Positions 1-16,106 of a stretch of 27,796 nt of DNA are shown here, piece by piece. The position numbers were made by a program, and so were the translations under genes. Each line of letters begins with the position of its first letter. Position 1 is the stretch's first letter. The stretch spans positions 1-27,796 of the forward strand of contig DASYRO010000402.1 of the NCBI GenBank assembly GCA_036004385.1, given 5' to 3'. The notes beneath the pieces are model-generated. The model was not told the DNA's origin, made no database searches, and worked only from the letters and a program-made list of their open reading frames with translations. This DNA comes from Candidatus Acidiferrales bacterium (GTDB lineage Bacteria > Acidobacteriota > Terriglobia > Acidiferrales > UBA7541).

Positions 1-53
1 TACCGACTGATCATTAGAGCTGATTAGATGACGGGATCGGCTCCTTCGATCGA

Positions 54-80
54 GTAGACTTGGTTGCTTCGGCGACCAAG
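54..80 (+). repeat. GTAG-footed hairpin (9-bp stem, TTCG loop); REP-like element or terminator-like stem
   Basis: GTAG-A-CTTGGTTGC-TTCG-GCGACCAAG; stem with one G:U pair; no U-tract. Confidence 0.4.
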
Positions 81-219
81 GCTCGGAAGTGGTCGCCGCG
101 TTTTCCGCGCACTGGGTCACCCGACATTATCCGTGGCGATCTGGCCTTCTGGCTCGAAGCCGGTTTCGTCTTTCGCCGCGCTTGTCAGTCGCGTTCCTCC
201 TCAATCACTCAACCGCAAA

Positions 220-936
220 TCACCATTTTTCTACGTACAGCGGCCGGCTCAATTCCAACTCCAGCTTGGTGCCTTTTTGGAGCTCGAGTTCCATGCCCAT
301 GCCGGAGGCGATCAGGAATCCGGTTGCGCCGCCGATGGCCGCGCCGATTCCCGCGCCCTTGCCGCTTCTCGACGTCGCGCCAATCACCGCGCCGATGGCC
401 GCGCCCGCGGCGGCGGCTTCGACTTCCGGTTTGCCCTTGCTGGTGCGAGCTTCGATTTCGCCTTCTTTGCTTTCGCCCGCCTTCACGCTGTGCTCTTCCG
501 GCACGCTCAGCACATGGGCGACGATAGGCAGCTTGCCTTCGCGCGTGTTGATTTCATCGAACGAGAGCCACAGCCGCGCGCGCCCGGTAAATCCCGCCGG
601 CTCGATACGGCTGACGTGCCCGCGAATCTTCGCGCCCGGCGGAATGACCGCGCCATTCGCGGCGATCAGCGGCTCCAGCGTTTTCAGATCAAATTTTTTA
701 CCGACCTTGTCCTTGCGCGTGCTCAGCTTGTCGTCCAGCTTCACCAGGAATCGCGTGCCGCTGGTGACCACCGCCGTGCTCACGCTGGACACTTGTCCGG
801 CGCTCGCGCTCTGCGATTGCCCGGTGACTCCAGGCGCAAACGCCAAGAGCGCTGCCAGTGTCCACGCCAGCGAATTGCCAATCTGAGCCGCGCGGCTTGC
901 TTCGGGAATTCTGCCAATCGTCGTTTCCTGCTGCAT
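220..936 (-). CDS. Secreted TrbI/VirB10-like beta-domain protein with C-terminal glycine zipper
   Basis: Trimmed from ORF 220..1089 to the ATG at 936, which follows GGAGAGGAG. Signal-like LAWTLAALLAFAPG. Core GTRFLVKLDDKLS...IPPGAKIRGHVS...GRARLWLSF. Gly zipper AAAAGAAIGAVIG...GAGIGAAIGG. Similar to 10104..10775. Confidence 0.75.
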   Translation of the reverse strand: MQQETTIGRIPEASRAAQIGNSLAWTLAALLAFAPGVTGQSQSASAGQVSSVSTAVVTSGTRFLVKLDDKLSTRKDKVGKKFDLKTLEPLIAANGAVIPPGAKIRGHVSRIEPAGFTGRARLWLSFDEINTREGKLPIVAHVLSVPEEHSVKAGESKEGEIEARTSKGKPEVEAAAAGAAIGAVIGATSRSGKGAGIGAAIGGATGFLIASGMGMELELQKGTKLELELSRPLYVEKW

Positions 937-973
937 GGGCCGATCTCTCCTCTCCGTCGTTTCGTTCGCGGAT

Positions 974-1038
974 GTAACGCCGCCTCGCAGGCAATTCCTT
1001 GACTTGCAACAGCACAACCGGCTGGAGGCCGGCGCTAC
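974..1038. repeat. Inverted doublet of REP-like elements
   Basis: 974..992 (+) GTAACGCCGCCTCGCAGGC (degenerate) facing 1018..1038 (-) GTAGCG-CCGGC-CTCCA-GCCGG. Confidence 0.5.
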
Positions 1039-1225
1039 ATGCGGAACCCCACGATGAGATGAGTCCAACGCCCGCCGGGTGGCCTGCATCGTAGCAATTG
1101 ATTTTTGCTGAACGCGCGCGCCCCGCGGACCCGGCGGTTGCGGGAGCCGGCCCCGGACTGTGTCCGCGGCGCCGAGCGCTGGTGAATTTTTGCAAGAACA
1201 TTGTTGGTTTTCTTTCCCTCTGCCG

Positions 1226-1231
1226 TATAAT
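1226..1231 (+). promoter_or_regulatory. Putative sigma70 -10 box for the OmpA-domain gene
   Basis: Perfect TATAAT in an AT-rich patch of a GC-rich window; weak -35 TTGGTT at 16-bp spacing. Confidence 0.45.
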
Positions 1232-1446
1232 GTTTTTTAGAGAGTGCCCCGGGGGTGCACCATGCGGGGCTCTCGAAATAGGGGTTATGATTAGTTTTTA
1301 GTTCTCCGCCTGGGCGTCCGTGTTTCGACGCCCGTCCATAGAAAGCTGCGGATCGGTGGACTACCGGGAACGCAGTCCGGTCTCCGCAGAGAACGCAAAC
1401 GAACTTATCCGGTCGGAACTTGGGCTCCACAACTGAGGAGGTCTTG

Positions 1447-3549
1447 ATGAAGGCCATGTTGCGAGCTTGTCTGCTGCTGCTTCTGTGCTTGGTCCTGGCG
1501 CCGGCCGCGCCCGCCGACGATGCCGGCTCCAAGAAAAGCAAATCCAAAAACAAATCCGCGGTGGTCCGCACGGACAAATCCGCCGCCGTGACGGGACCTT
1601 CCGCGCTCGCAGCCGATCCCATGCCCCGCGGCTCCGCTACGCTGTTCCCAGCCCACCCGTCCGCCACTCTTGCCGCCTTTCCCGCGCCCCCCAGCCCGCG
1701 CGACGCCAAGGAGCCTCCTGTGCTGCGGCCCATGCCCGCGGCGACCACCGGCACACTGGGCATCTTCACTGTGGACTCCGGCTACCTGCTGCCCAAGCGT
1801 GGCTTCGCCATCACCACTTATGTGAACAAGATTTCGCGCATGCCCGGCAATGTCACCATCCTTTCTGTGGGCACGGCCGCTAGCTACGGCGTCACTGACT
1901 GGTTGAACCTCCATATCGGGTGGGAGCCGCATCGCTACGCGCACCTGAGCGCGCCCTCACAGTTGAGTTTGCGCACGCCGCCGACGAATCCGCCGTTTCC
2001 CAACGCCGCCAACCCGACCATCTTTCGCGGACTGACCGTAGTGCCCGGCTCCGCGCCGGGCTACGTGGAGGACTATCCGTTTGTCAACCGCAACGCCGGT
2101 GGCATCGGCGACCTCGTCGTTGGATTCAAGGTCGGCCCATTTTCCGAGTGGCGCGGGGATTGGCTTTCGATGGCCATTCGCAACGACATCATCATTCCCA
2201 CGCGACGCTCCCTCTCCGACCTGCTCGATAACCAGGTGCAGACGGGCCAGTTCGGCTGGGTGGGCAGCATCTCCACCAGCAAAACGTGGTGGAAGGACCG
2301 CATTGTCAGCACGTCAAACCTGAACTACCGCATCACGCGCGACCCGCGTTCCAACCGCGTCCGCCTGTTTACGCAAGCGGACGTGCTGCGCCTTTCCGGC
2401 GGCACAATTTTCCTGCCCAAGTATCGCATTCAGCCGATGACCGAGACGGTGTTCAATATTTACGTTGGGCCGCACACGCAGAACACCACGTTTGGCGCGC
2501 GCGACCCCATTGACTCCGTGTGGGGCGTGCGGCTCTACCCCTGGTCCAACGTGGCCATCGACGTCGGCTATCGCCGCACCGGCAACCTGAGCGAGCACGG
2601 CGATAAGAACGGTTTCATCATCAAGATTGGCAGCGTGTACTGGCCGGAAAAGCCCAAGCCGGTGAACCGCTCGCCGGTAGTCTCCTGCACCGCGGATGCC
2701 TCCTCGGTGTTCGTCGAATCCGGCGACACGGTCGGCGTGCGCGCTTCGGCCAGCGATCCCGATAACGATACGCTGAGTTATTCTTGGACTGCATCCGGCG
2801 GTACGGTGGAAGGCAGCGGCGCATCGGTGCGCTGGAATTCCGCGGGCACGCGCACCGGCACCTACACTGTCACGGTCAACGTATCCGACGGCAAGGGCGG
2901 CACAGCCTCCTGCGCCGTGGACATCAAGGTCGAACCGCGGCCCAATCGCGCGCCCACCATGTCCTGCTCGGTGGACCGCTCCTCGGTACTTTCCGGCGAG
3001 CGCGTGCGCGTCACGGCTACGGCTTCCGACGCGGACAACGACACGCTGACCTACTCCTGGCGCACCAACGGCGGCCAGATTATCGGCTCGGGTGCGAGCG
3101 TGCAGCTCGATACCACAGGCCTTGCCGCGGGACGCTACACCGTGACTGGACGTGTGGATGACGGCCGCGGCGGCGCCGCTGACTGTACGGTGGATGTCGG
3201 CGTCACTGTTCCTCCGCCTCCGCCGCAATCCTCCAAGCTTTCGGAGTGCTTCTTCCGCGCCGCTTCCGCGCGCGTAGATAATGTTTGCAAGCGCGTGCTG
3301 GATGATGTCGCCCTGCGCTTGCAGAACGATCCGAAGGCTCGCGTGGCCATCGTCGGCTACGCCGATCCGAAGGAACGCAAGCCCGATAAACTGGCCATGG
3401 ATCGCGCCGAGGCTGCCAAGAAATATCTGGTGAGCAAAGGCATTGCCGATGCGCGGATTGATACGAAAACCGCCGGCGGCCAGGCTGGCGCCGATAAACA
3501 AAACCGCCGCGTGGATGTAATCTGGATCCCCGAGGGCGCAACGTACTGA
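1447..3549 (+). CDS. Outer-membrane protein: signal peptide, putative beta-barrel, two PKD/Ig-like repeats, C-terminal OmpA-like peptidoglycan-binding domain
   Basis: GAGGAG RBS before ATG 1447. Signal MKAMLRACLLLLLCLVLAPAAPA. Two ~93-aa repeats starting at 2665 and 2944 (NRxP..SC...SDxDNDTL.YSW...G.YTVT..V.DG.GG.A.C). C-terminal IVGYAD...DRAEAAKKYLVSKGI...NRRVDV. Confidence 0.88.
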   Translation: MKAMLRACLLLLLCLVLAPAAPADDAGSKKSKSKNKSAVVRTDKSAAVTGPSALAADPMPRGSATLFPAHPSATLAAFPAPPSPRDAKEPPVLRPMPAATTGTLGIFTVDSGYLLPKRGFAITTYVNKISRMPGNVTILSVGTAASYGVTDWLNLHIGWEPHRYAHLSAPSQLSLRTPPTNPPFPNAANPTIFRGLTVVPGSAPGYVEDYPFVNRNAGGIGDLVVGFKVGPFSEWRGDWLSMAIRNDIIIPTRRSLSDLLDNQVQTGQFGWVGSISTSKTWWKDRIVSTSNLNYRITRDPRSNRVRLFTQADVLRLSGGTIFLPKYRIQPMTETVFNIYVGPHTQNTTFGARDPIDSVWGVRLYPWSNVAIDVGYRRTGNLSEHGDKNGFIIKIGSVYWPEKPKPVNRSPVVSCTADASSVFVESGDTVGVRASASDPDNDTLSYSWTASGGTVEGSGASVRWNSAGTRTGTYTVTVNVSDGKGGTASCAVDIKVEPRPNRAPTMSCSVDRSSVLSGERVRVTATASDADNDTLTYSWRTNGGQIIGSGASVQLDTTGLAAGRYTVTGRVDDGRGGAADCTVDVGVTVPPPPPQSSKLSECFFRAASARVDNVCKRVLDDVALRLQNDPKARVAIVGYADPKERKPDKLAMDRAEAAKKYLVSKGIADARIDTKTAGGQAGADKQNRRVDVIWIPEGATY

Positions 3550-3552
3550 CAG

Positions 3553-3576
3553 GTAGCACTGGCTCGTAGCCTGTGC
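3553..3576 (+). repeat. REP-like element (GTAG foot + palindrome)
   Basis: GTA-GCACTGGCT-CGT-AGCCTGTGC, 8 of 9 bp paired; same family as copies at 16122, 16160 and 16380. Confidence 0.6.
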
Positions 3577-3584
3577 TGTTCTTC

Positions 3585-3626
3585 AGGGGCAGGCTCCCGT
3601 GCTTTGGGAGTCTGCCCCTACTTTTT
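3585..3626 (+). terminator. Intrinsic terminator of the OmpA-domain gene, between convergent genes
   Basis: AGGGGCAGGCTCCC-GTGCTTT-GGGAGTCTGCCCCT 14-bp stem (one G:U) followed by ACTTTTT; reads GTAG-GGGCAG... on the minus strand. Confidence 0.75.
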
Positions 3627-3668
3627 ACGGTAGCCTGGAGCCTGCGTCTCAATGCGCGGTGCGTGCTT

Positions 3669-5777
3669 TCACGAAGCCACAGCCACTTCCGCCTGCGCTG
3701 TCGGGAGATATACGCTGAAGGTGGATCCCCGCCCCGGTTCGCTATCCACCCAGATGTAACCGGCGGATTGCTTGACGATTCCATAGACAGTGGCCAGCCC
3801 CAGTCCTGTTCCCTTGCCAACGTCTTTAGTCGTAAAGAACGGCTCGAAGATGTGTGCCTTGGTGTCCGCACTCATGCCGCAGCCGGTGTCGCGAACACTC
3901 AACATCACATACGATCCTGTGCGCGCCCCGGGGTGCGTGCCGGCAAAGGCTTCGTCCAGCTCGGCATTGGCCGTTTCAATGGTCAGCGTGCCGCCCTCGG
4001 GCATGGCGTCTCGCGCATTGACGGAAAGGTTCAGGATAATCTGCTCCATCTGCGAGCGGTCGGCCTTGGTCTGACCCAGAGACGCGTCCAGATTGGTGTC
4101 CACGGCGATGTTCTCGCCAATCAAGCGGGTGACCATGCTCTGCACGTCGGCAATCACGTCATTGAGGTTGAGCAGCTCCGGCGCGAGGGTTTGCTTGCGG
4201 CTGAAAGTAAGGAGCTGCCGCGTCAGCGCGGTAGCGCGTTCGGAGGCCTTCTGGATTTCTTCAAGATTTTTGCGCGGCAGCTCGCCCAGGCCTTTTTCCT
4301 CCAGCAACATTTCGCTATACGATTTGATGATCATCAGCAGATTGCTGAGGTCGTGTGCCACTCCGCCCGCGAGCTGGCCCATGGTCTCCATCTTCTGCGC
4401 TTGGCGAATCCCCTCTTCGACCTTGCCGGTGTTCTTCTCGGCATAGAGGGCTTTGTCAGCCCGCTTGAGCAGCTCCGAAGGTTGCTCACCGGGCCGGTGT
4501 TCCGCCCAGCCAGCCGAGAAGGTGATGGGGATCTTAGTTCCCCCGAGATCGACTTCCAGCCCGGTCAGTCGAGTGAGCACAAGAGGCACCTGCCCGGGCA
4601 GGCATTCGGTCAGCAGCAGCATGAATTCATCGCCGCCGATGCGCGCGGCCAGATCGGATGTACGACAGACCTTGTTCAGATGCTTCGCAAATTCGGCCAA
4701 CACCAGATCGCCCGCGGGATGGCCGTGCCGGTCGTTAATCTCCTTGAAGTTGTTGAGGTCGAGAGTCAACAGAGTGAGCGCGTAGGCGCGCCGGTCGGCG
4801 CGCGCGAACTCCACGGCCATGTGCTGCTCGATAAAACGCCGGTTGTACAGGCCGGTCAGGGAATCGCACATGGCCAGTTGATGGAGCTGGGCGTTTTCGA
4901 TGGCGATGGCGCAGTGCACGGAAAGCGCGCGTAGGAAATTGGTGTCCTCGGCGTCGAACGAACCGGAGGCTTTGTTCAGCAGTTGCAGCACGCCGATAAT
5001 ATCATTGCTCTTATCGCGAATGGGCACGCAGAGCAGCGTGCGCGTGCGGTAGCCGAGGCGGCGGTCCACCTCCGGCTCGAAGTGCGGATCCTCGTAGGCA
5101 TCGAGCAGATTGACGGTTTCTCCGGTGCGCGCGACGTGCCCGGCAATGCCCTTGCTCATGGGGATGCGGATTTCCTGCTTCGCCAGGCCCAGGCCGACCA
5201 GCGACCAGATCTCCTCGCGCTCCTTGTCCACCAGAAACATCGTGCCGCGGTCGGCGCCCGTCTGCCGGGTGGCCAACTCGAGGACGATGTTGATGAGCTC
5301 GCCGAGGTCGAGGGGCGAATTGAGCTGCTTGGTGGCTTCCACGATCCTGGAAAGCGTCTCGACGCTGCGGGCAAGAGCGAGCTCGCGCTCGTGCTTCTGT
5401 TGGTGAAGCAGCTGGCGCTGGAGTTCTTCTGCGCGCAGTTGCGAGCTGGCTGCGGTGGTGATCTGTTCGGCCAGCCCTCGGCGCAGCCGCTTAATCAGGA
5501 TCTGCTGGTAGATCAAGTGTGTGTTGAACAGCAGCACCAATCCGACCAGGCCGCGAACTCCCAGGGAAATATTGAGATCGAGGAGCGAATTCCTTACGTT
5601 CGAATCCGCTTTCAACAGCGTGGGCAGCGCGGAGGCCACCACCGCTGCGGTCAGCAAAAGCATAACCACGATGGAAGCCGACCACATCCACCAATCGCGC
5701 CGTTCGAGCTGCTTCAACTTGGCCTGGAGCCCCTGCCAGCTCAGCTCCGCGGCCTCTCGTGTTATCGTCTGTTCCAA
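3669..5777 (-). CDS. Membrane-anchored GAF-GGDEF diguanylate cyclase fused to a CckA-type histidine kinase (HisKA + HATPase_c), no receiver
   Basis: TTG start after GGAGG. Two hydrophobic segments, then GAF. GGDEF domain: DSLTGLYNRR, LDLNNFKEIND, RTSD I-site, RIGGDEF, ADKALYAEK. Kinase: H-box AHDLSNLL, N-box NLSVNARDAM, DTGCGM, FEPFFTTK, GTGLGL. Confidence 0.92.
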   Translation of the reverse strand: MEQTITREAAELSWQGLQAKLKQLERRDWWMWSASIVVMLLLTAAVVASALPTLLKADSNVRNSLLDLNISLGVRGLVGLVLLFNTHLIYQQILIKRLRRGLAEQITTAASSQLRAEELQRQLLHQQKHERELALARSVETLSRIVEATKQLNSPLDLGELINIVLELATRQTGADRGTMFLVDKEREEIWSLVGLGLAKQEIRIPMSKGIAGHVARTGETVNLLDAYEDPHFEPEVDRRLGYRTRTLLCVPIRDKSNDIIGVLQLLNKASGSFDAEDTNFLRALSVHCAIAIENAQLHQLAMCDSLTGLYNRRFIEQHMAVEFARADRRAYALTLLTLDLNNFKEINDRHGHPAGDLVLAEFAKHLNKVCRTSDLAARIGGDEFMLLLTECLPGQVPLVLTRLTGLEVDLGGTKIPITFSAGWAEHRPGEQPSELLKRADKALYAEKNTGKVEEGIRQAQKMETMGQLAGGVAHDLSNLLMIIKSYSEMLLEEKGLGELPRKNLEEIQKASERATALTRQLLTFSRKQTLAPELLNLNDVIADVQSMVTRLIGENIAVDTNLDASLGQTKADRSQMEQIILNLSVNARDAMPEGGTLTIETANAELDEAFAGTHPGARTGSYVMLSVRDTGCGMSADTKAHIFEPFFTTKDVGKGTGLGLATVYGIVKQSAGYIWVDSEPGRGSTFSVYLPTAQAEVAVAS

Positions 5778-5916
5778 TTAGACCTCCACCTGCCGGTACT
5801 CTGCATGTCGCCGCACGATGCTTGTGCCCAAATGGCTTGCCGTCCCAGACTTTGCGAGACTTCCCTCGGGTGCCCCGGTTGCGCGCCCCATTCTGGTAAG
5901 CGTATGCCCCCGCGAT

Positions 5917-6426
5917 CTACTTCTGATTGTGCTTGCGGCTGTCCAGGTGCAGCTTTCGAAATTCGGCCAAAATGTACGCGTCCCATCAGCCCTTCTTGAT
6001 TTCTTCCTCCATCGTTTCGAGCGCTGGATCCGGCGACATCGCGCGCTTATAGGGTCGCTCCGTAGTCAGTGCGTCATGGACATCTACGATTGGCAGCACG
6101 CCGGCGGTCATTTGATCGGCCAGTCCGCGGCGCAGTCTCTTAATCAGGATCTGCTGGTAGATCCAGTGTATGTTGAACAGCAGCACCAAGCCCACTAGTC
6201 CGCGAATTCCCTGGGTAATGCTGAGGTCAAGAAGCGTGTCCCATACGTTCGTTTCTTCTTTCAAAAGCGTAGGCAGCGCAGACGCCACTACCGCTGCCGT
6301 CAGCAGGAACATAACCGCGACGGAGGCCCCCCGCAGCCACCCATCGCGCCGCTCGAGCTGCTTCAACCGGGCCTGCAGCGCTTCCCAGCTACCTTCCGCG
6401 GCCGTTTGCATCATCGCGGTATCCAT
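5917..6426 (-). pseudogene. Internally deleted or chimeric gene: TM module like that of 3669..5777 joined to an HD-GYP C-terminal tail, with an in-frame TGA at 5986-5988
   Basis: ATG 6426 after GGAGG. 70/93 aa identical to the TM module of 3669..5777. Then VLPIVDVHDALTTERPYKRAM...KKG*WD aligns to VLQIVDVYDALTTIRPYKRAL...TKGWWD of 6539..7531. Frame continues to TAG at 5917. Confidence 0.8.
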
Positions 6427-6538
6427 GGCCCCTCCGTGCTGGAAACCCAAAATCGAATCTCGAATAACGAGCGTAGGACAGACTTCCAGGTCTGTCCGCT
6501 CGCCGAATCAAACGCTTTGTCGAATCTCCAGACTCTTT

Positions 6539-7531
6539 CTAAGTTCTGACTTCTGATTGCTGACTTCTGTTTTCGACCGAATCCAGAATCAGCTTTTGAA
6601 ATTCCGGAAAAATATTCGGATCCCACCAGCCCTTGGTGACTTCTTGCGCGATGGTGTCCAGCGCCTCCTGCGGTGTAAGGGCCCGCTTGTAGGGACGTAT
6701 CGTGGTCAGCGCGTCGTACACATCCACAATTTGCAGCACGCGCGCGCGCACGGGGATTTGTTCGCCGGCCAGCCCATCCGGATAGCCGGAGCCGTCCATG
6801 CGCTCGTGATGATGGCGGATGATCGGCAGCACCAGGCGGAACGTCTTCAGCGGCGCGCAAATGCGCTCCCCGGTGACGGGATGCTGACGCATGACCACCC
6901 ACTCTTCGGGTGTCAGCGGGCCGGGTTTCAGGAGGATGGCGTCCGGCACGGCCACTTTGCCGATGTCGTGCACGATGCCGGCGCGCCGCAACGCGATAAT
7001 GTGCTCGGAAGGCAGGCCCAGCCGCTCGCCCAACCGCGACGAGTAATCCGACAACCGCTCGCAATGCCCTTCGGTGTAGGGATCTTTTCCTTCGATGCTG
7101 CGCGCCAGTACGAACACCACGGATTCGGCGCGCTCCAGCTCGTCGGTGTAAGCCTTCAAGCTGAGCAGCGAGCGCACGCGCGCCAGCAGTTCATTGCGGT
7201 CCACGGGCTTGCTCAGGAAGTCGTCGGCGCCGGCTTGAATTCCGCGAATGCGGTCTTCCGTGGCCGAAAGACCCGTCACCAGCACCACCGGCGTCAGCCG
7301 CGTTTCCGCATTGGACTTTAGTTGCTGGCACACTTGGATGCCGTCCAGATGCGGCATTTCCACATCCATCAGGACCAGGTCGGGTTGGCTGCGCGCAAAT
7401 TCCGCCAGCGCCGCGCGCCCATCGCTCGCGGTGACCACTTCGTAGCCTTTGGCCTCCAGCATCCGCGTCATCAGCACGCGGATCTCCTCACGGTCATCGG
7501 CGACAAGAATTTTCTCAGCCCGCGTATCCAC
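6539..7531 (-). CDS. Response regulator with REC + HD-GYP domains (RpfG-like cyclic di-GMP phosphodiesterase)
   Basis: KILVADD...DLVLMDVEMP...FLSKP receiver; EGHCERL, VHDIGK, HHHERMDGSGYPDGL, DVYDALTT.RPYK. Start uncertain: GTG 7531 chosen because a TATAAT at 7616-7621 lies inside the longer ORF. Confidence 0.93.
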   Translation of the reverse strand: MDTRAEKILVADDREEIRVLMTRMLEAKGYEVVTASDGRAALAEFARSQPDLVLMDVEMPHLDGIQVCQQLKSNAETRLTPVVLVTGLSATEDRIRGIQAGADDFLSKPVDRNELLARVRSLLSLKAYTDELERAESVVFVLARSIEGKDPYTEGHCERLSDYSSRLGERLGLPSEHIIALRRAGIVHDIGKVAVPDAILLKPGPLTPEEWVVMRQHPVTGERICAPLKTFRLVLPIIRHHHERMDGSGYPDGLAGEQIPVRARVLQIVDVYDALTTIRPYKRALTPQEALDTIAQEVTKGWWDPNIFPEFQKLILDSVENRSQQSEVRT

Positions 7532-7615
7532 GGCCAGGCACCATTGGCGCCACTCCCCCGCTCTTGTGTGTGCTTGCGCGGGTATAGTTAGGTGGAAGAG
7601 AGGGTCGCATCGCCC

Positions 7616-7621
7616 ATTATA
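7616..7621 (-). promoter_or_regulatory. Putative sigma70 -10 box for the HD-GYP gene
   Basis: Perfect TATAAT on the minus strand ~85 nt upstream of GTG 7531; no convincing -35. Confidence 0.4.
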
Positions 7622-7838
7622 CTCTCTGTCTTCCCTGCGCGCTGCTGACAACCTGCGCCCTTGTGTTCTGCTCCGTAACAGTTATTCATCACTGTTCAAC
7701 CGCGAGGCAGGAACTGAACTTCGCTCCATATTTCCATCCGCGATCATCTGTATTCGTTTTGCCGTATCGGACGGTTTGTCTTTTTCGTCACATTCCACTC
7801 GGGACGCTTCGGGGCCACACGCACTCTCGGCTCTGCGT

Positions 7839-7844
7839 TACAAT
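7839..7844 (+). promoter_or_regulatory. Putative -10 box for the BNR/VPS10-repeat gene (very short leader)
   Basis: TACAAT 12 nt before ATG 7857; no Shine-Dalgarno visible. Confidence 0.35.
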
Positions 7845-7856
7845 AGAAATTGGCCC

Positions 7857-9968
7857 ATGCGTCGCCTCGTCCAACTCATTCCTCTCTTCCTCATTTCTTC
7901 TATTCCTCTATCCGGGCAGGTGTGGAAGCCCATGGGCCCGCCGGGGGGCGATGTGCTCACGCTGGCCTCCGATCCCGGCGATCCCAAGCGCATCTATCTG
8001 GGCACCGCCGACGGGCACGTCTTTGGCACCACGGACGGCGGAGAATCCTGGAAAATTCTAGGCCGCGCGGGGCATTCCACGGATGGCGTTATCACCGCAA
8101 TCCTCGTGGACCCGCGCAATGCAAAAACTCTTTTTGCCGCCGCGTGGTCGCGGGAAAGCAACGGCGGTGGCGGCGTGTTCCGTAGCGACGACGCTGGCGT
8201 CACCTGGCGGCGCACCGGCCTCGACGAGCACGCTGTGCGCGCGCTGGCCCAGGCGCCTTCCAACCCGGACGTGCTGGTGGCCGGCGCGCTCGACGGCGTC
8301 TATCGCTCGCTCAATTTCGGCCGCACGTGGCTGCGCATTTCTCCGGAGGAGAGCGAAGAAATCCGCAACCTCGATTCCATCGCCATCGACCCGAAGGACC
8401 CGGACATCATTTATGCCGGCACGTTTCATCTGCCGTGGAAGACATTGAACGGCGGACGCAGTTGGAAATCCATCCATGACGGAATGATTGACGATTCCGA
8501 CGTGATGAGCATTGTTGTGGACCGCACGAATTCCCGCCGCCTTTTTGCCAGCGCCTGTTCGGGCATTTATCGCAGCGACGACGCCGGCGCGGAATGGCGC
8601 AAGATTCAGGGCATTCCCTACGCGGCGCGGCGCACGCACGTGATTCGTCAGGATCCGCATCGCCCGCAGACGGTGTACGCCGCAACGACCGAAGGTCTCT
8701 GGCGCACCAACGATTCGGGCGCGTCCTGGCAGCGGCTCACGCCCGGCGATTGGGTAATAAACGCTCTGGTTCTGGACGCGAAAACGCCCGGGCGGCTGGT
8801 GATGGGCACCGAAAAGCTGGGCGTGATGGTCAGCGAAGATGGCGGCAAAAAATTTCGCGCGGCGAATGAGGGTTTTTATCACCGCCAGATTCTTGCGCTG
8901 GCGCTGGACCGCGATCGGCCGGAGCGCGTCCTCGCCGTCCTGGCCAACGCTCCCGAAACCGTGCTGGCCACCGATGATGCAGGCAGCAACTGGAGGCCGT
9001 TGGGCCCGGGGTTGAAAGCGGAGGCGGTGCGCCGCGTGTATGCTTCGCCCGCTGGATGGCTCGCCGCGCTCGATCGCGGCGGCTTGATGCGCTACGAGGC
9101 CGAGAAATCCGCTTGGCAGCGCATCGGCACCGTCAGCGGAGCGCCGGCATTCAGCTCTGGCCAAGCAGCCGATGATGGCAAGGACAAAGCCGACCAGAAA
9201 TCAGCGAGTCGCAACTCATCTTCTGAGTTCAAGGACAAGCAGGGTCCGAAGTTAGGAACTCGGAGCTTTAGCTCCGACAAAACGCAGAGTACAAAGAGAA
9301 AGGGGCTTCCGCCCCTGAAGCAAAGTGGTCCGCGACCGCTGAATCATATCGTGCTGGACATGGCCTTCACGCGCGAGGCGTGGTACGCGGCCACCGACGA
9401 CGGCTTGCTCGTCTCGCGCGACTCGGGCGCCACGTGGGCGATCACGCCGGTGGGGCCGGTCGTGCTGCCCGCGCGCGCCGTGCACATCTCTGAGGACGCG
9501 AAAAATTTCTGGCTGGTCACCCTGCGCGGCATCGTGTTTTCCGGCGATAGCGGAAATACCTGGGCATGGCATGACCTGCCGTACGAAACCGGCGGCGCGC
9601 TGCGAATTGATGCAGCGGGAGAAAAAACGCTTCTCGCCACGACCGAAAAAGGCCTGTTCATTTCTCGCGATGGCGGAGGCACGTGGAAACAAGCAGCCTA
9701 CGGTCTGCCCCAGGCCCCCATTCAGGACCTCGCCATCGTGGGAGATATTTTCCTCGTCTCCATGCAAACGCAGGGCCTGTACATCTCCTACGATCGCGGG
9801 GCAACATGGATGCGCATCGAAGGCACGCTGGCCGAGGGGCGCTTTCCGGTGGTCACCGCGCGCGAAACAGCCTCCATTGTGTATGCGGCGTCGTCCACCG
9901 AGGGCCTCTATGCTGTCGAACTGCGCGAAAAAGTGGCCACGGCTCCGCCTCCCGGAAAAGCTCCCTAG
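7857..9968 (+). CDS. Secreted BNR/Asp-box (VPS10/sortilin-like, YCF48-like) beta-propeller protein
   Basis: Signal-like MRRLVQLIPLFLISSIPLSG. Repeated Asp-box motifs: TTDGGESW, SDDAGVTW, SLNFGRTW, TLNGGRSW, SDDAGAEW, TNDSGASW, SEDGGKKF, SRDSGATW, SRDGGGTW, SYDRGATW. Confidence 0.88.
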   Translation: MRRLVQLIPLFLISSIPLSGQVWKPMGPPGGDVLTLASDPGDPKRIYLGTADGHVFGTTDGGESWKILGRAGHSTDGVITAILVDPRNAKTLFAAAWSRESNGGGGVFRSDDAGVTWRRTGLDEHAVRALAQAPSNPDVLVAGALDGVYRSLNFGRTWLRISPEESEEIRNLDSIAIDPKDPDIIYAGTFHLPWKTLNGGRSWKSIHDGMIDDSDVMSIVVDRTNSRRLFASACSGIYRSDDAGAEWRKIQGIPYAARRTHVIRQDPHRPQTVYAATTEGLWRTNDSGASWQRLTPGDWVINALVLDAKTPGRLVMGTEKLGVMVSEDGGKKFRAANEGFYHRQILALALDRDRPERVLAVLANAPETVLATDDAGSNWRPLGPGLKAEAVRRVYASPAGWLAALDRGGLMRYEAEKSAWQRIGTVSGAPAFSSGQAADDGKDKADQKSASRNSSSEFKDKQGPKLGTRSFSSDKTQSTKRKGLPPLKQSGPRPLNHIVLDMAFTREAWYAATDDGLLVSRDSGATWAITPVGPVVLPARAVHISEDAKNFWLVTLRGIVFSGDSGNTWAWHDLPYETGGALRIDAAGEKTLLATTEKGLFISRDGGGTWKQAAYGLPQAPIQDLAIVGDIFLVSMQTQGLYISYDRGATWMRIEGTLAEGRFPVVTARETASIVYAASSTEGLYAVELREKVATAPPPGKAP

Positions 9969-10056
9969 GCTACCGGTGTCCCGAAGATTTTACAGAGCCG
10001 CAGCCAGTGCGAGTTTTATAACTCCTTATCCTTCAATCAGAAATGTGCCGGCCGTG

Positions 10057-10071
10057 TGGCACGTTGCGTGC
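10057..10071 (+). promoter_or_regulatory. Putative sigma54 -24/-12 promoter of the lipoprotein gene
   Basis: TGGCACG-TTGC-GTGC versus consensus TGGCACG-N4-TTGC: correct GG-N10-GC spacing, one mismatch, ~32 nt before ATG 10104. Confidence 0.55.
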
Positions 10072-10103
10072 CCCAAGCACAGTGGGGTTTTGGGGAGGTC
10101 GCT

Positions 10104-10775
10104 ATGAAGGACATGCGACTTTTTCTGCGTTCGCTGTGGGTTGTAACTCTGGCAATGAGTCTGGCGAGCTGCTCCAGCGTCTCCACACCCAGCCAGGCAG
10201 ACGAGAGCAAGAAAGTGGACGAGCGCGGCATCCTGAGAACGATTCTGCCGGCGGAGAGAACAATTTTGCTGCCCGCCGGCACAGAGATTGAAGTTGTGCT
10301 CGACGAATCCATTTCCAGCGCGCAGGCTCATTCAGGCGATCGCTTTGACGCTTCGCTGGCCGCGCCCGTGGTCGCGGAAGGCAAGACCGTATTCCCGAAG
10401 GGCGCGCGCGCCGAAGGTGTGGTCATCGATGCTCGCGCGTCTGGACACTTGGAAGGCGTGCCCCGACTGCGGCTGGCACTGCGCTCCGTGGAGATTGGCG
10501 GCAGAAACTACGATCTGCGCACTACCTCGATTACAAGAACCGGGCAGAATCACGACAAGCGTAACTGGACACTCATCGGCGGCGGCACCGGTGTGGGCAC
10601 ACTCGTCGGCGCAATCGCCGGAGGCGGAAAAGGCGCCGCGATCGGCGCGGCCGCCGGCGCGGGAGCAGGTACCGCCACAGCCGCAGCCACCGGCAAAAAA
10701 GACATCGTGATTCCAGTGGAATCGCAACTCAGCTTCAAACTCAGTCAGGCAGTTTCTGTGCAGTTGAAACGATAG
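10104..10775 (+). CDS. Lipoprotein with TrbI/VirB10-like beta-domain and glycine zipper
   Basis: GGGGAGG RBS. Lipobox LASC after a hydrophobic stretch. LPAGTEIEVVLDESISS...GDRFDASLAAPV...FPKGARAEGVV. Gly zipper IGGGTGVGTLVGAIAGGGKGAAIGAAAGAGAG. Confidence 0.8.
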   Translation: MKDMRLFLRSLWVVTLAMSLASCSSVSTPSQADESKKVDERGILRTILPAERTILLPAGTEIEVVLDESISSAQAHSGDRFDASLAAPVVAEGKTVFPKGARAEGVVIDARASGHLEGVPRLRLALRSVEIGGRNYDLRTTSITRTGQNHDKRNWTLIGGGTGVGTLVGAIAGGGKGAAIGAAAGAGAGTATAAATGKKDIVIPVESQLSFKLSQAVSVQLKR

Positions 10776-10797
10776 ATTGGAAACAATCGAGCTGGAG

Positions 10798-10839
10798 GGC
10801 CGCCATTCCCATTGTGGGAATGACGGCCTTTCCATTTTT
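10798..10839 (+). terminator. Intrinsic terminator after the lipoprotein gene
   Basis: GGCCGCCATTCCCA-TTG-TGGGAATGACGGCC (13 of 14 bp) followed by TTTCCATTTTT. Confidence 0.8.
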
Positions 10840-11002: not shown

Positions 11003-11026
11003 CCGAATTGGGTCGTGACCAACACC

Positions 11027-12424
11027 ATGACCGATGCGGCGGAAACCTCGCGTGACACCTCAGCGCCTGCGGGCAGCATACTGATAGTAGACGACGAGGC
11101 CGCGGCACGAGATTTGTGCGCGGATGTGGCGCGTGCCGCCGGATTGCTGGTCCGCACGGCGACCAATACGGAACAGGCCCTCGAACTTCTCGAGCAGTTT
11201 CCCGTGGACATCGTGGTCACCGACCTGAAAGTGCCTTCACTCGGCGGCATCGAATTGCTGAAGCGCGTGCGCGCGTTGCACGCGCAAGTCCCCGTCATGG
11301 TCCTCACGCAATACGGCACGATTGAAACGGCGGTGGAAGCCACGCGCCTCGGCGCTGCCGACTACGTCACCAAGCCGTTCCATGTGGATGAACTGCGCGC
11401 CAAGCTCGATCGGCTGCTGCGCTCGATCGAGCTCGACCAGGAAAATCGCGTGCTGCGCGAACAGCTTCGCAGCCGCCCCGGATTCGGCGGGCTGATTGGC
11501 GTTTCGCCGAAGATGCAGCGCGTCTACAAGATGATCGAGAAGGTCAGCCAGCACAATTATCCGGTGCTGATTCTCGGCGAGAGCGGCACGGGCAAGGAAC
11601 TGGTGGCTCGTTCCATCCACTTCTCCGGTCCGCGGCGTAAAAAGCCATTCGTGCCGGTGGATTGTTCCGCGCTGGTGCCGACGCTGATCGAGTCCGAGCT
11701 GTTCGGATACGTCAAGGGCGCATTCACCGGCGCGCTGCAGACCCGCCAAGGCTTGCTGGAGGCGGCCGCGGACGGCACGTTGTTTCTGGATGAAATCGCG
11801 GACATGCCTGTGGATCTGCAAGCCAAGCTTCTGCGTGCATTGCAGGAGCGGGAGATCAAGCCAGTGGGCGCGGTGGAGCGCGTGCCCATTCACGTCCGCG
11901 TCATGGCGGCGACCAACCGCGACCTCGAGTCGGCGATACGCTCCGGCGCCTTCCGCCAGGACTTGTATTTCCGCCTCAATGTCGTCTCTATCAAACTGCC
12001 GCCGCTGCGCGAGCGCAAGAGCGATATCCCCCTGCTGGTTAATTTCTTTCTCGAAAAATTCAGCGAACCGGAGCGGCCGTTCCGCGGCATTTCCGAAGAT
12101 GCCATGCGCCGCCTGATGGCCTACGACTGGCCGGGTAACGTTCGCGAACTGGAAAACGCTATTGCCCGCGCCATGGCCCTGGGCAGCGGGCCGATCCTGC
12201 ACGTCGGCGATCTCCCGTCCAATCTCCAATATGGCTCGCCGGCAGGCTCGCTGGAGCGGCCGCCTTCCGGAGATGAACTTCTTCCGCTTGAAGAGCTCGA
12301 ACGCCGCGCCATTTTTCGCGCGCTGCGCGAAACCAGCGGCGACAAACTCGCCGCCGCAAGGCTTTTGGGAATCGGCAAGACCACGCTGTACCGCAAGCTC
12401 AAGCAGTACGAAGCCAACCACTGA
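11027..12424 (+). CDS. NtrC/ZraR-family sigma54-dependent response regulator (REC-AAA+-Fis HTH)
   Basis: ILIVDDE...DIVVTDLK...YVTKPF; Walker A GESGTGKE; ESELFGYVKGAFTGA; Walker B TLFLDEI; FRQDLYFRLNV; WPGNVRELEN; HTH AAARLLGIGKTTLYRKLK. Start GTG 11015 or ATG 11027. Confidence 0.96.
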   Translation: MTDAAETSRDTSAPAGSILIVDDEAAARDLCADVARAAGLLVRTATNTEQALELLEQFPVDIVVTDLKVPSLGGIELLKRVRALHAQVPVMVLTQYGTIETAVEATRLGAADYVTKPFHVDELRAKLDRLLRSIELDQENRVLREQLRSRPGFGGLIGVSPKMQRVYKMIEKVSQHNYPVLILGESGTGKELVARSIHFSGPRRKKPFVPVDCSALVPTLIESELFGYVKGAFTGALQTRQGLLEAAADGTLFLDEIADMPVDLQAKLLRALQEREIKPVGAVERVPIHVRVMAATNRDLESAIRSGAFRQDLYFRLNVVSIKLPPLRERKSDIPLLVNFFLEKFSEPERPFRGISEDAMRRLMAYDWPGNVRELENAIARAMALGSGPILHVGDLPSNLQYGSPAGSLERPPSGDELLPLEELERRAIFRALRETSGDKLAAARLLGIGKTTLYRKLKQYEANH

Positions 12425-12683
12425 TCCGCCCTCGGCATTTTGCTTGTTTCTCCGCTTTTTTTCGGGCGTTGCATGTGCCGGTGCCTGCTTTTGCCCGCTT
12501 ACCGTTGCGGGAAGAAATCAGATTTTGAGTCTCACTCTGGGAAGGCGGGCGCGACGCAGCGAACGGCAATCGTCTTGAATCCATTGAACAGAGACTACTT
12601 ACACGCCGCAAAGCCTCTGGAATCACCTGTGCTGGCACATCCTGTTGTCAACGACAGAGGCATGTATGTACAGACCGATGCAT

Positions 12684-12776
12684 ATGGGGAGAGGTGTGCG
12701 GCGCGCGATTGAGTTCGTCGTGGCCATCAGCACGGCGCTTCTCTTCAGCTATCTCATCCTGCGTTCACCCTGGTAG
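12684..12776 (+). CDS. Putative small single-pass membrane peptide (30 aa, or 26 aa from GTG 12696)
   Basis: MGRGVRRAIEFVVAISTALLFSYLILRSPW*. GGGGAGAGG is an RBS for GTG 12696. Basic N-terminus plus ~18-aa hydrophobic run. Ends 7 nt before the kinase ATG. Confidence 0.55.
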   Translation: MGRGVRRAIEFVVAISTALLFSYLILRSPW

Positions 12777-12783
12777 GCCGGTG

Positions 12784-15282
12784 ATGGGAATCAAAAAGTG
12801 GTTGCGCGCGTGGTCCAGCGAACGCGACGCCGCGGCGACGCTCGCCACGTTTTCGGGTGTCGCCGTCGCGGGGGACTCGCCTGAGCGTTTGCAGGAATTA
12901 GCCGCCGAGGAACTGCTGAAGATCACCGAAGCGGATCGCGCGGGAGTGTGGCTGGAGTCGGACATGTCGCAAATTCTGCGCGGTTCCGTCGTCGATGTGC
13001 GGGGAGTCCCGGCTCCGGTGGAATGGCAACAGTTAGACATCTCCGCTTTCCCCTGGCGACACGCCTTGCGGACCTCGACGCCGCTGATGGCCGACGTGCA
13101 CGAAGACGCGCACAATGGCGCGGCGGGAGAATCGCCATCCGCTGTGCCTCCCGTGCTGGCGGAAATGCGCAGCGCTGTGTGGTGGCCGGTGCGGTCCGCG
13201 GGCCGCGCAGCGGGAGTGGCCATGCTGGCTTTTCGCGACAGCCATCAAAGCGTATCCGAAGCGGCTGCGCCATTTGTCTGGACTTTGCTCAATCAACTGG
13301 CGCTGGCTCACTCCGCCCATCGCACGAAAACTGAGCTAGCACGCCTGCAATGGGATTGTGCGGAGCGCGAAGAAACCCAGGCAGCGCGTAAACGGGAGGA
13401 GCGGTCCGCAGTCGAAAACAGCCATCCCTCTGCGGCGGAGCGGTCAGGAGAACGCCACGGGCAGCCCGCGGGACCGCAACTCGCGGAAGAGCTACGCGCG
13501 GTAATGGAAGCGGTCGATAGCGGCGTGCTCCTCCTCGACGCGTCGGGAAAAGTTCGTTCCTCGAACGGGCAGTTTCTGCGCCTTTTTGGACTCGAGGAAA
13601 ACGCAACGGCTACGTTCAGGGGCCGTCAGATCCTCGAGCTGTACGAGGCGCTCGCACCGCTCATTCGCGACCCGGATACGTTTTCCCGCCGCTGGCGGGA
13701 ACTGCCGCTCCTCGGCAACTCCACGGCGTGGGACGAGGTGGAACTCCTCAGCCCAGCCGGGCGCGTGCTGCAACGCTTTTCGCGGCCCGTGTCCGACGCG
13801 CAGGGTCGGCGCGTGGGCTGGCTGGAGCTGTACCGCGAACGAAGCGCACACGCGCCTCCGCACATGCCCATGCTGCAAACGGAGAAAATGGCCGCCATCG
13901 GCCAGCTTGTCTCCGGAATCGCGCACGAACTGAACAATCCGCTCACCAGCATCATGGGCTACGCGCAACTTCTGCTCGCGCGGATGCCCGCCGGCCGCGC
14001 CGCGGGCACCGAACGCCGTCGGGAAAGCGATGCCACTCGCAATATGTTCCGCGAGGTGGAGAAAATTTATTTGGAGGCGGAACGCGCCGGGCGCATTGTG
14101 AACAATCTGCTTCTGTTCGCGCGCAGCGGACGCGGCGAGCGCCGCGCCGTGGATCTCAATGAAATCGTAGAGCGCACGCTGGCGCTGCGCAGCTATGAGC
14201 TGAGAATTGAAAACATACAGCTCGAGCTGCAGCTCGACCGCGAACTGCCGCCGACGCTGGCCGATCCTCATCAAGTGCAGCAGGTGGTGCTGAATCTCCT
14301 GGTGAATGCCGAGCAGGCCATCCTCGAAAGTCATGCCGCCGACCACTCCGACGCCGCTGGCGGCGCGGAGCTGGGACACATACGGATTCGCTCGTTCTCA
14401 TTGCCGGAGGCGAACCCGCCGCGCGTGGCTCTGGAAATTTCCGATAGCGGCCCGGGAGTGCCTCCGCAGCACATTTCGCGCCTTTTCGATCCATTTTTTA
14501 CCACCAAGCCGGTCGGACTGGGCACCGGCCTGGGCCTTTCCATTGCCTATGGAATCGTTCACGACCACGGCGGCGACATCTACCTGATGAATTCCGCGAG
14601 AATTTCCCCCGGAGCGCCCTCCCTGGGCGGCGCATCCTTTGTTGTCGAACTGCCCGTTCTCAGCGCCGTCGAGGCCGTGGTTCAACCGTGCGAAACAGAG
14701 GAAGCGGCAAGCGTCGAGCCGCCCCGAGAAGCCGAGCCGGTGCGGGTGGAGAAAAAGCATTCCGCGTCTCGCGTCCGTGCGCGCCGCGGCAGCATCCTGG
14801 TCGTGGAAGACGAGCCGACCGTCGCACAACTTGTCGCCGATGTGTTGAAGGACGAAGGCTATGACGTGGACGTGGTGCTGGACAGCCGCGAAGGTCTCGC
14901 ACGAGTGGCGCGGTTCGGATACGACCTGATTATCTGCGACCTGCGCATGCCGCGGATTGACGGCCGGGCATTCTATCGGTCGCTGGTGCGCAGCGGCCAT
15001 CCCGCGCAGTTGCGGCTGCTCTTCATCACCGGCGACACGCTTTCCCCGCGCACGCTGGAATTCCTGGACCGCACGGGGCTCCCTTGCCTGGCCAAACCCT
15101 TTCTGGTGGAGGAACTGAAAAGCATCGTTGCGCATACCCTGGATTTACTGCGCAAGCCGCGCAACGGTTCCGCGCCGAAACGCAGAGTCACCGATTTTGA
15201 GGATCCCGCCGAAATGGCGCCGCACTCCGGTGAGGTTCCCCCTTCGCTGGACCGGCGGGCTGAAGAATTGAGGAAACAATGA
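12784..15282 (+). CDS. Cytoplasmic hybrid sensor histidine kinase (GAF-like, PAS-like, HisKA, HATPase_c, REC)
   Basis: H-box GIAHELNNPLTSI, NLLVNAEQAI, DSGPGV, FDPFFTTK, GTGLGLSI; receiver ILVVEDE...DLIICDLRMP...LAKPF; no TM helix visible. Start trimmed to ATG 12784. Confidence 0.93.
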   Translation: MGIKKWLRAWSSERDAAATLATFSGVAVAGDSPERLQELAAEELLKITEADRAGVWLESDMSQILRGSVVDVRGVPAPVEWQQLDISAFPWRHALRTSTPLMADVHEDAHNGAAGESPSAVPPVLAEMRSAVWWPVRSAGRAAGVAMLAFRDSHQSVSEAAAPFVWTLLNQLALAHSAHRTKTELARLQWDCAEREETQAARKREERSAVENSHPSAAERSGERHGQPAGPQLAEELRAVMEAVDSGVLLLDASGKVRSSNGQFLRLFGLEENATATFRGRQILELYEALAPLIRDPDTFSRRWRELPLLGNSTAWDEVELLSPAGRVLQRFSRPVSDAQGRRVGWLELYRERSAHAPPHMPMLQTEKMAAIGQLVSGIAHELNNPLTSIMGYAQLLLARMPAGRAAGTERRRESDATRNMFREVEKIYLEAERAGRIVNNLLLFARSGRGERRAVDLNEIVERTLALRSYELRIENIQLELQLDRELPPTLADPHQVQQVVLNLLVNAEQAILESHAADHSDAAGGAELGHIRIRSFSLPEANPPRVALEISDSGPGVPPQHISRLFDPFFTTKPVGLGTGLGLSIAYGIVHDHGGDIYLMNSARISPGAPSLGGASFVVELPVLSAVEAVVQPCETEEAASVEPPREAEPVRVEKKHSASRVRARRGSILVVEDEPTVAQLVADVLKDEGYDVDVVLDSREGLARVARFGYDLIICDLRMPRIDGRAFYRSLVRSGHPAQLRLLFITGDTLSPRTLEFLDRTGLPCLAKPFLVEELKSIVAHTLDLLRKPRNGSAPKRRVTDFEDPAEMAPHSGEVPPSLDRRAEELRKQ

Positions 15283-16106
15283 AAGCTGTGAACCAACTGT
15301 CTTCCATTTCGTACTCCGGTCGCCTCGCGGGCCTCCGGCGAGATTGTGACCCGCGCGTTGTCCTGCTGGTCAGCACCGATACGGCGCTCAGTCACCGGCT
15401 GGTTCGCGCTCTCAACGGCAACGGTAATCTTTCCTTAGCGGACGAGACGCCCGCTTACCAGGTGCCCGTGGCCACGAGTGTCGCCCAGGCACGCTCCTGC
15501 ATCGGCCGTACCGCGCCAGACGTGATTTTGCTCGACGAGAGCATCCACGCTCCGAATCTGCTTACGTATCTGGTGGAGGACTTGGCGAATATTGCGCCGG
15601 TGATTTTTCTCGCCGCGCCGGAAAACCTGGCGTGGTGGTGCAGACAGAAAGAATCTGCCACGCTCGTGGCCGAGGGCCGCGTGGAATGTGTGGCCCGCGA
15701 TGGCGACTTCGTGCCCCTGGCCGCTCGGCTGATTATGCGCCACGCAGGCCCATCCCCGGAAAATTTGGGACCGCACAGCCTATCCATGCTGGCCTCCGCA
15801 GTGAGCGGCGGCGAGGCGCTTGCCGAAGAAATCCCGCTGGATTTCGGAGAAGTCCTGCGCCACGAGGTGAACAATCCGCTGACGGGAATTCTCGGCAATG
15901 CCGAGCTTTTGCTTTCGCGGCGCGACCGCCTGTCCGCGGACATGGTCGAGAGGTTGGAGATCATCGCCGATCTCGCCATCCGCCTGCGCGAAACCGTCCG
16001 CCGTCTGAGCAACGCGCTGGTGCGCCGTCCCGAAGCTTCGGGAAGCATTCCCGGGCACGCGCCCGGTGATCTTTCCTCCTCCCACCGCCACCGCCCGCCG
16101 ACGTAG
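15279..16106 (+). CDS. Degenerate receiver + histidine phospho-acceptor (HisKA/DHp) domain, no ATPase domain
   Basis: ATGA overlap with the kinase stop. PDVILLDES receiver-like core lacking the usual acidic pair and Lys. LRHEVNNPLTGILGNAELL H-box. Protein ends with no N/G1/F/G2 boxes. Confidence 0.82.
   Translation: MKAVNQLSSISYSGRLAGLRRDCDPRVVLLVSTDTALSHRLVRALNGNGNLSLADETPAYQVPVATSVAQARSCIGRTAPDVILLDESIHAPNLLTYLVEDLANIAPVIFLAAPENLAWWCRQKESATLVAEGRVECVARDGDFVPLAARLIMRHAGPSPENLGPHSLSMLASAVSGGEALAEEIPLDFGEVLRHEVNNPLTGILGNAELLLSRRDRLSADMVERLEIIADLAIRLRETVRRLSNALVRRPEASGSIPGHAPGDLSSSHRHRPPT

Follow-up and report, generated by a model that had tools for sequence, protein, structure and literature searches.

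A GGDEF domain between membrane sensor and kinase core in a family of acidobacterial histidine kinases: a candidate in-line c-di-GMP sensor

The 27,796-nucleotide stretch of DNA analyzed here (contig DASYRO010000402.1 of assembly GCA_036004385.1, from Candidatus Acidiferrales bacterium; below, the window) contains a gene for a membrane sensor of this soil acidobacterium in which a GGDEF domain is followed directly by a histidine kinase core. On balance we favor the view, drawn from sequence comparisons, that this GGDEF domain both makes and senses cyclic di-GMP (c-di-GMP) in line for a CckA-like kinase, which in turn would control an RpfG-type phosphodiesterase and thereby close a c-di-GMP feedback loop. 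Fixed spacing around the GGDEF domain, an invariant RxxD motif (I-site) and a conserved neighboring regulator gene point to coupling, and not to simple tethering, of the domain to the kinase. The parts are all of known kinds; what is new is their arrangement and the inferred in-line sensing. To our knowledge, kinases that read c-di-GMP amount to few cases (CckA, ShkA, RavS, MtrB and SgmT), each with a different site. If the proposal is true, the family described here would add a new readout of c-di-GMP, in which a rigid helix links a GGDEF domain to the helix with the phospho-acceptor.

The fusion gene and its predicted architecture

The gene occupies positions 3669-5777 of the minus strand and is an uninterrupted open reading frame of 702 codons (protein P0001), with TTG as start codon and a GGAGG sequence 7 nt 5' of it. 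The assignment of its order, two transmembrane helices (2TM)-GAF-GGDEF-HisKA-HATPase_c, is supported by the reading frame and its translation, by Pfam, by orthologs that are 73-77% identical and by independent contigs. Pfam matches were detected for GAF (aa 157-293, E 1e-19), GGDEF (aa 302-452, E 3e-39), HisKA (aa 466-529, E 7e-11) and HATPase_c (aa 573-694, E 8e-23). Neither a receiver (REC) nor a PAS domain was found by Pfam in the 702-residue protein, in which GAF and GGDEF precede the DHp domain of the kinase. Three motifs could be read directly in the sequence: DSLTGLYNRR, RTSD followed after 5 aa by GGDEF, and a histidine, H475, within GGVAHDLSN. An earlier reading of the window, made from its sequence only (below, the sequence-only reading), had described an intact-looking GGDEF domain with a D-x-LTGL-x-NRR motif and an RxxD I-site, and a complete kinase core without a receiver; sequence and Pfam bear out both descriptions.

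The GGDEF domain (aa 301-452, 4422-4877, minus strand) appears to have an intact active site. Its I-site, R372-T-S-D375 (4653-4664), lies five residues before the A-site, G381-G-D-E-F385 (4623-4637), and the residues predicted to be required for cyclase activity are all present (D305xLT, D340, N348, D357, K448 and GGDEF 381-385). Of these, D340, N348, D357 and K448 correspond to the metal- and guanine-binding residues D327, N335, D344 and K442 of PleD; the equivalent of PleD R446 is Lys. The best solved relatives of this domain are active cyclases. The HisKA/DHp domain (aa 466-529, 4191-4382) carries the phospho-acceptor H475 (nt 4353-4355) in an HDxxN motif of phosphatase type. N479 of this motif is invariant in a 42-sequence family alignment, and the motif fits a bifunctional HisKA kinase. 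In the catalytic domain HATPase_c (aa 573-694, 3696-4061), which aligns to the CckA structures 5idj and 5idm, the N, G1, F and G2 boxes are intact (N587, D630xGxG, F644 and G658xG). The best solved relative of the kinase core is the DHp-CA portion of Caulobacter CckA (5idj, E 4e-60, approximately 50% identity). The name CckA-type, used in the sequence-only reading, therefore holds for the kinase core; it does not extend to the rest of the protein, which has no PAS and no REC.

The N-terminal part consists of a 2TM module (aa 1-118, 5424-5777) with the motifs LERRDWW(M/L)W and YQQ.LIKRLRR, followed by the GAF domain (aa 137-300, 4878-5369), a Pfam-supported insertion specific to the subfamily of the window. 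The 2TM module has a very short outer loop and matches no Pfam family. It is a candidate for an undescribed membrane sensor or anchor module.

An AlphaFold2 model built from the 42-sequence alignment (mean pLDDT 80) contains two N-terminal membrane helices (2-55 and 63-152), a long helix leading from the second of them (TM2) to GAF, and a helix (276-303) that connects GAF with GGDEF. The last GGDEF helix (433-450) is separated by a one-residue break from the first DHp helix (452-492). Because the break between these helices is a single residue, practically no flexible linker is left in the model at the GGDEF-to-DHp junction (aa 450-456, 4410-4430), which is defined by the model, by spacing and by the contigs of four runs. 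The linker, put at about 9 aa in the sequence-only reading, is shorter in the model, which places the break at 450/452. The GGDEF domain is predicted to belong to the helical spine that leads from the sensor to the DHp of a CckA-like kinase core.

Logan contigs of four soil-metagenome runs span positions 4420-4460, over which a check of the junction had been proposed, without a gap (X1, 3600-5175; X2, 3600-4996; X3, 3979-4899; X4, 3992-4782). Run X1 may be the source sample, and three runs remain besides it. With the junction spanned by contigs of three independent soil metagenomes, the GGDEF-kinase fusion is confirmed as real and a misassembly is excluded. Nine more protein clusters, 73-77% identical and found in NCBI, ENA and JGI assemblies, have the same six Pfam families.

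Distribution and conservation of the family

We searched for the fusion with its GGDEF-to-kinase part (residues 296-702). Among 400 other genomes sampled across the phylum, a contiguous full-length match was found in two, both in one genus of the class to which the window belongs, and the remaining matches were limited to the kinase core. One genome flagged as unpublished in this search (G024) underlies none of the conclusions drawn here. In a sample of 400 other genomes of that class, 15 carry the fusion, distributed over five families (f103, 8/14; f105, 3/7; f106, 1/4; f3, 2/75; f100, 1/31); none of the 74 genomes of the window's own family does. When 1.84 billion cluster representatives were searched, 14 clusters (at 50% identity) were contiguous over both domains among the 150 best matches, the rest of which were kinase-only. 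Some representatives with matches in several stretches (P0128-P0137) were considered as further GGDEF and kinase candidates and rejected, being double-HATPase kinases without GGDEF. One protein, P0055, is of a second type, with GGEEF, a longer linker and then histidine kinase (HK)-REC. The ESM Atlas holds at least four clusters with GGDEF, HisKA and HATPase (52-100 members, 500-590 aa), listed without domain order, and one of them is labeled mostly Bacillota. The GGDEF-HisKA order is therefore rare, as had been supposed when it was called unusual, but it is not unique and may have arisen more than once. The particular family with TM2-GGDEF-HK is small and, in the genomes sampled, is found only in one class of Acidobacteriota. 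We found no description of a GGDEF-then-HisKA protein in the literature searched, most subscription journals being outside its coverage.

A scan of genome contigs with an alignment of the junction gave no fusion among the matches listed (80 loci) and is uninformative on distribution, these loci being stand-alone TM2-GGDEF relatives or kinase-only genes. One GGDEF match, on contig C184 of the window's genome (L045), ran into DHp across a TAA codon and was spurious, the gene being a stand-alone TM2-GGDEF cyclase of 278 aa (12878-13714, minus strand). It has the same 2TM module as the fusion protein, and the contig also encodes a second REC-HD-GYP paralog (2459-3418, plus strand; 61% identity). 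In another relative (L033, G412:C10, 8889-10151, minus strand) an in-frame TAG lies inside the GGDEF-kinase match, which may be a possible pseudogene or a sequencing error.

Three forms of the family could be distinguished: TM2-GGDEF-HK (approximately 520-560 aa), TM2-GGDEF-HK-REC (approximately 660-690 aa) and TM2-GAF-GGDEF-HK, the form of the window's protein. The 2TM module (here LERRDWWLW and YQQ.LIKRLRR) also heads stand-alone TM2-GGDEF, TM2-GGDEF-EAL and TM2-PAS-HK-REC proteins. As the same module heads the TM2-PAS-HK-REC kinases, the GGDEF domain sits in the position of a PAS domain.

Conservation and spacing were counted in 66 family sequences. The distance that separates the GGDEF Phe and the phospho-His is 97 residues in 51 of them and 90 in 12, which form the GAF clade and include the window's protein (F385 to H475). 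The two values differ by one heptad and together account for 63/66; distances of 89, 96 and 101 occur in single sequences. On the other side of the domain, DxLT follows the end of TM2 after 35 aa in 52 of the 54 members that lack GAF, versus 211-214 aa in the GAF form. These counts show a GGDEF domain that is predicted to be held by connectors of fixed length on both sides.

The RxxD motif of the I-site is present in every family member (66/66), and the phospho-His is kept in 65/66. The A-site, in contrast, is canonical in 48/66 and decayed in the remaining 18. One clade has the A-site variants GADEF, GSDEF, GPDEF, GEDEF, EDNRF and EEDQF, of which GEDEF, EDNRF and EEDQF are clearly dead. In three members (L038, L042 and L043) the metal (Mg)- and guanine-binding residues are lost as well, yet these proteins have kept RxxD and the spacing of 97 residues. 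All catalytic residues are intact in the window's protein and the GAF clade. The sequence-only reading had suggested that the I-site could regulate the kinase in cis; the invariant RxxD, the decay of the A-site and the fixed helical spacing lend comparative support to this suggestion, which stays an inference. Two proteins with a dead A-site (L042:5772-7343 and L043:1470-3053) have Tyr in place of Asn in the N box of their ATPase domain (VYARD); these may be phosphatase-only proteins or pseudokinase c-di-GMP receptors.

The standard role of the RxxD I-site is product inhibition, as in PleD and WspR. This is the starting point of the most serious alternative, by which the TM/GAF input would switch cyclase and kinase independently, the I-site would serve for product inhibition only and c-di-GMP would have no effect on the kinase through the GGDEF domain. 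Such parallel outputs fit the window's protein and its GAF-clade orthologs, in which both catalytic sets are intact, and multi-output sensors (e.g., GGDEF-EAL) are common. However, members that have lost the A-site and metal or guanine residues keep RxxD and the exact spacing, and for them this explanation fails because an enzyme that is dead has no use for product inhibition. In addition, GGDEF lies between the sensor and DHp, so that the signal of the sensor has to pass through or around it. We regard parallel outputs as unlikely, if still deserving attention. Since a dead cyclase has no product to inhibit it, the I-site retained in the clade with decayed A-sites is best read as a putative c-di-GMP receptor site in front of the kinase, and regulation in cis draws its main support from this reading. 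Members of this kind, with a dead A-site and an intact I-site, would be natural mutants that separate the making of c-di-GMP from its sensing.

The neighboring REC-HD-GYP regulator and the proposed feedback circuit

On the same strand as the fusion gene and upstream of it, the window contains a gene for a REC-HD-GYP response regulator of RpfG type (6539-7651, minus strand; Pfam REC 48-160 and HD_5 182-347), a probable phosphorylation partner of the kinase. The regulator retains intact phospho-Asp, HDIGK and HHERMDGSGYP motifs. The true start of the gene is probably downstream of 7651, as orthologs align only from residue 46. This conserved upstream regulator, of which the sequence-only reading made no use, is the decisive context of the fusion.

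Among the 14 other carriers whose flanks were compared, 10 have a REC-HD-GYP ortholog directly upstream of the fusion gene and on the same strand, either overlapping it or separated from it by 14-27 nt. These orthologs are 60-70% identical to the window's regulator in REC and 68-80% in HD-GYP, and in all four genomes tested the upstream neighbor is the best match of that regulator (73% identity). No REC-HD-GYP copy lacks the Asp, HDxGK or HHExxDGxGYP motif. Exceptions are two genomes of one genus (g9), with a convergent STAS gene instead, and one hybrid type (G608) without a REC-HD-GYP neighbor. In L003 and L023, small open reading frames that precede the orthologs were considered as HD-GYP genes and found to be unrelated to HD-GYP. 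The conserved gene order shows that the ancestral neighbor of the family was a putative RpfG-type REC-HD-GYP phosphodiesterase.

Six to eight of the operons with an upstream REC-HD-GYP gene continue downstream with a third gene, which encodes a regulator composed of REC, a middle part of approximately 230 aa and GGEEF with canonical A-site and I-site (as in L042:7400-9010, L038:10490-12169 and L036:10540-12141). In one of these proteins the middle part matches PilZ (E 3e-6). The product is a putative response-regulator cyclase, and it may have a c-di-GMP-binding domain in its interior. The operons that have this REC-(PilZ-like)-GGEEF gene are those whose kinase A-site has decayed. No ortholog of it was found in the window's genome, a fragmented metagenome-assembled genome (557 contigs, 71.6% complete).

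The favored circuit would work as follows. The TM/GAF input would let two GGDEF half-sites meet, which would lead to c-di-GMP synthesis. Binding of c-di-GMP at the RxxD I-site might then shift the seating of the two GGDEF domains on the spine, and this rearrangement, transmitted by the rigid helix, would set the kinase/phosphatase balance of DHp-CA. GGDEF would in this way fill the slot that a PAS sensor has in CckA-like kinases. By phosphorylating or dephosphorylating the REC-HD-GYP regulator, the kinase would tune c-di-GMP breakdown, and the outcome would be a self-contained c-di-GMP feedback module, either a homeostat or a switch. If the kinase were on at high c-di-GMP, homeostasis would result; if the phosphatase were on at high c-di-GMP, as in CckA, there would be positive feedback and a switch. 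Precedents exist for individual steps: c-di-GMP flips CckA between kinase and phosphatase (PMC5026420), ShkA is activated by c-di-GMP (PMC6969517), and regulators of the RpfG family rely on cognate kinases (bioRxiv 10.1101/2021.11.05.467447).

A more specific version, to which we would give slightly less than an even chance, is that GGDEF was recruited as an in-line, I-site-based c-di-GMP sensor in the PAS slot and mechanically switches a kinase whose target is a phosphodiesterase regulator, joined in some operons by a cyclase regulator. The operon would then measure c-di-GMP and correct it, and the branch of the window would still make the ligand, gated by a GAF domain that it shares with a PP2C phosphatase. 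With its cyclase/sensor kinase, its phosphodiesterase regulator and, in many cases, a cyclase regulator besides, the operon would be a small candidate system for homeostasis or bistability of c-di-GMP. It would also offer a first handle on c-di-GMP signaling in the soil Acidobacteriota, a group difficult to grow in the laboratory.

It should be noted that several points weigh against the proposed loop. In still-active members, the invariant I-site could reflect product inhibition alone. The receptor argument rests mainly on the one clade with decayed A-sites and hence on essentially one evolutionary event, and fixed spacing might be seen in any structurally constrained fusion. The closest orthologs (P0003, P0008 and P0011) have no REC-HD-GYP neighbor and show a restriction-modification insertion in its place, and therefore the pairing is either dispensable or can act in trans. 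In the window itself, a pseudogene and 208 nt separate the regulator gene from the fusion gene. A predicted complex of kinase 296-702 and regulator 40-370 (ESMFold2) scored 0.06 and was used as evidence neither way.

The conserved neighbor also allows a different explanation, that GGDEF serves mainly as a docking scaffold. It would bind the HD-GYP domain of the partner and keep phosphodiesterase and kinase together, much as RpfG in Xanthomonas binds certain GGDEF proteins without regard to their catalysis. Contacts between HD-GYP and GGDEF have been described for RpfG, where they involve the GYP motif and a DxD motif and are favored by phosphorylation of REC (PMC3749722). The intact GYP motif of all orthologs and the decay of the A-site in a GGDEF domain that itself stays would be consistent with docking. 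Nevertheless, docking leaves the invariance of RxxD unexplained, and GGDEF is kept in branches without an HD-GYP neighbor (the STAS-linked g9, the hybrid G608 type and the GAF-clade orthologs); we consider this explanation improbable. Finally, an artefact or decay, i.e., an assembly chimera or a gene that arose by recent fusion and has no function, might be suspected from the fragmented genome, the adjoining pseudogene and the TAG codon in G412, but it is hardly credible given the three runs besides the possible source that span the junction, the more than 60 homologs that share order and motifs, and the open frame of 702 codons.

Comparison with known systems helps to define what would be particular to the proposed in-line sensor. 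CckA of Caulobacter crescentus resembles the fusion protein in its kinase core (5idj) and in the concept that c-di-GMP sets the kinase/phosphatase state. However, CckA is an alphaproteobacterial TM-PAS-PAS-DHp-CA-REC protein, whereas the fusion protein has neither PAS nor REC; and CckA directly binds, through CA and DHp, a messenger that is made in trans, whereas the fusion protein has a GGDEF domain with its own I-site before DHp. Six of the seven c-di-GMP-contact positions of CckA (the equivalents of G318, R374, Y514, G515, K518 and F539) are identical in the fusion protein, and W523 is replaced by Tyr. We rejected these residues as support for regulation in cis, as they are generic to the acidobacterial kinase subfamily, including kinases without GGDEF (Y in 190/195, K in 185/195). 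ShkA, a hybrid kinase of Caulobacter, has as its sensor a pseudo-receiver after the kinase core, whereas GGDEF precedes the core in the fusion family.

SgmT of Myxococcus xanthus (GAF-HK-REC-GGDEF) is similar in being a GAF-sensing histidine kinase that carries GGDEF, and its I-site binds c-di-GMP, the kinase itself being the receptor (PMC3509222). In SgmT, however, GGDEF is C-terminal, follows the receiver, is catalytically degenerate and acts by spatial sequestration and not through DHp; in the fusion protein it is N-terminal to DHp, has a fixed helical connector and has its catalytic residues intact. The RpfC/RpfG system of Xanthomonas likewise combines a sensor kinase with a REC-HD-GYP phosphodiesterase, and RpfG contacts GGDEF proteins (PMC3749722; bioRxiv 10.1101/2021.11.05.467447). 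RpfC, a hybrid kinase that contains REC and HPt and senses DSF (diffusible signal factor), has no GGDEF, whereas the fusion kinase carries a cyclase/sensor domain and some operons of its family add the REC-PilZ-GGEEF cyclase. An RpfG-type pair, that is, an adjacent REC-HD-GYP gene with intact motifs and conserved synteny, is found in the window and not beside the closest orthologs.

Surroundings of the fusion gene in the window

In the pseudogene between the regulator and the fusion gene (5917-6450, minus strand), recognized by repeats and tblastn, a second 2TM module runs on in frame into the C-terminus of an HD-GYP protein, with TGA replacing a Trp codon. Its HD-GYP part corresponds to the last ~40 codons, and homology runs on past the TGA. 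Two direct repeats relate it to its neighbors (5453-5752/6102-6401, 81% identical in nucleotides, and 5942-6106/6582-6746, 72%), and the arrangement is covered by an independent X2 contig (5223-6600). The pseudogene is probably the relic of a tandemly duplicated regulator-kinase pair that then underwent an internal deletion.

A near-identical GAF domain is encoded 13 kb away (18521-19012, plus strand), as assigned by Pfam, within the gene of a GAF-PP2C (SpoIIE) phosphatase (18089-19756). The two GAF domains are identical at 140 of 164 residues (85%), more than the 76%, over a wider region, between the fusion protein and the orthologous GAF of P0011. Beyond these two, the genome yielded no further close GAF copy. 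The linker after the GAF of the phosphatase also resembles the 23 residues that precede the GAF of the kinase (14/23). This likeness suggests either that one ligand might feed both proteins or that gene conversion may have occurred. The Logan contigs of X1 and X2 both end within the GAF-coding region (window 5175-5223), a break that the near-identical copy at 18521-19012 would be expected to cause by tangling the assembly graph.

The region 1-10800 of the window was compared with the corresponding loci of its closest relatives, L023, L003 and L002. Relative to these, the block from a BNR protein through the kinase to OmpA/PKD is inverted between a Gly-zipper gene and a gene of 233/239 aa. The slot between the BNR and kinase genes holds REC-HD-GYP and the pseudogene in the window, and an N6/N4 methyltransferase and a DpnI-like restriction system in the three relatives.

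The locus was present in none of the RNA runs searched, and a scan for promoters and terminators gave nothing informative except a hairpin between convergent genes. Elsewhere in the window, successive genes (11015-16106, plus strand) encode a sigma54-type response regulator (11015-12424), a PAS hybrid kinase with REC and a HisKA-only protein. They might form a possible phosphorelay, separate from the fusion described here.

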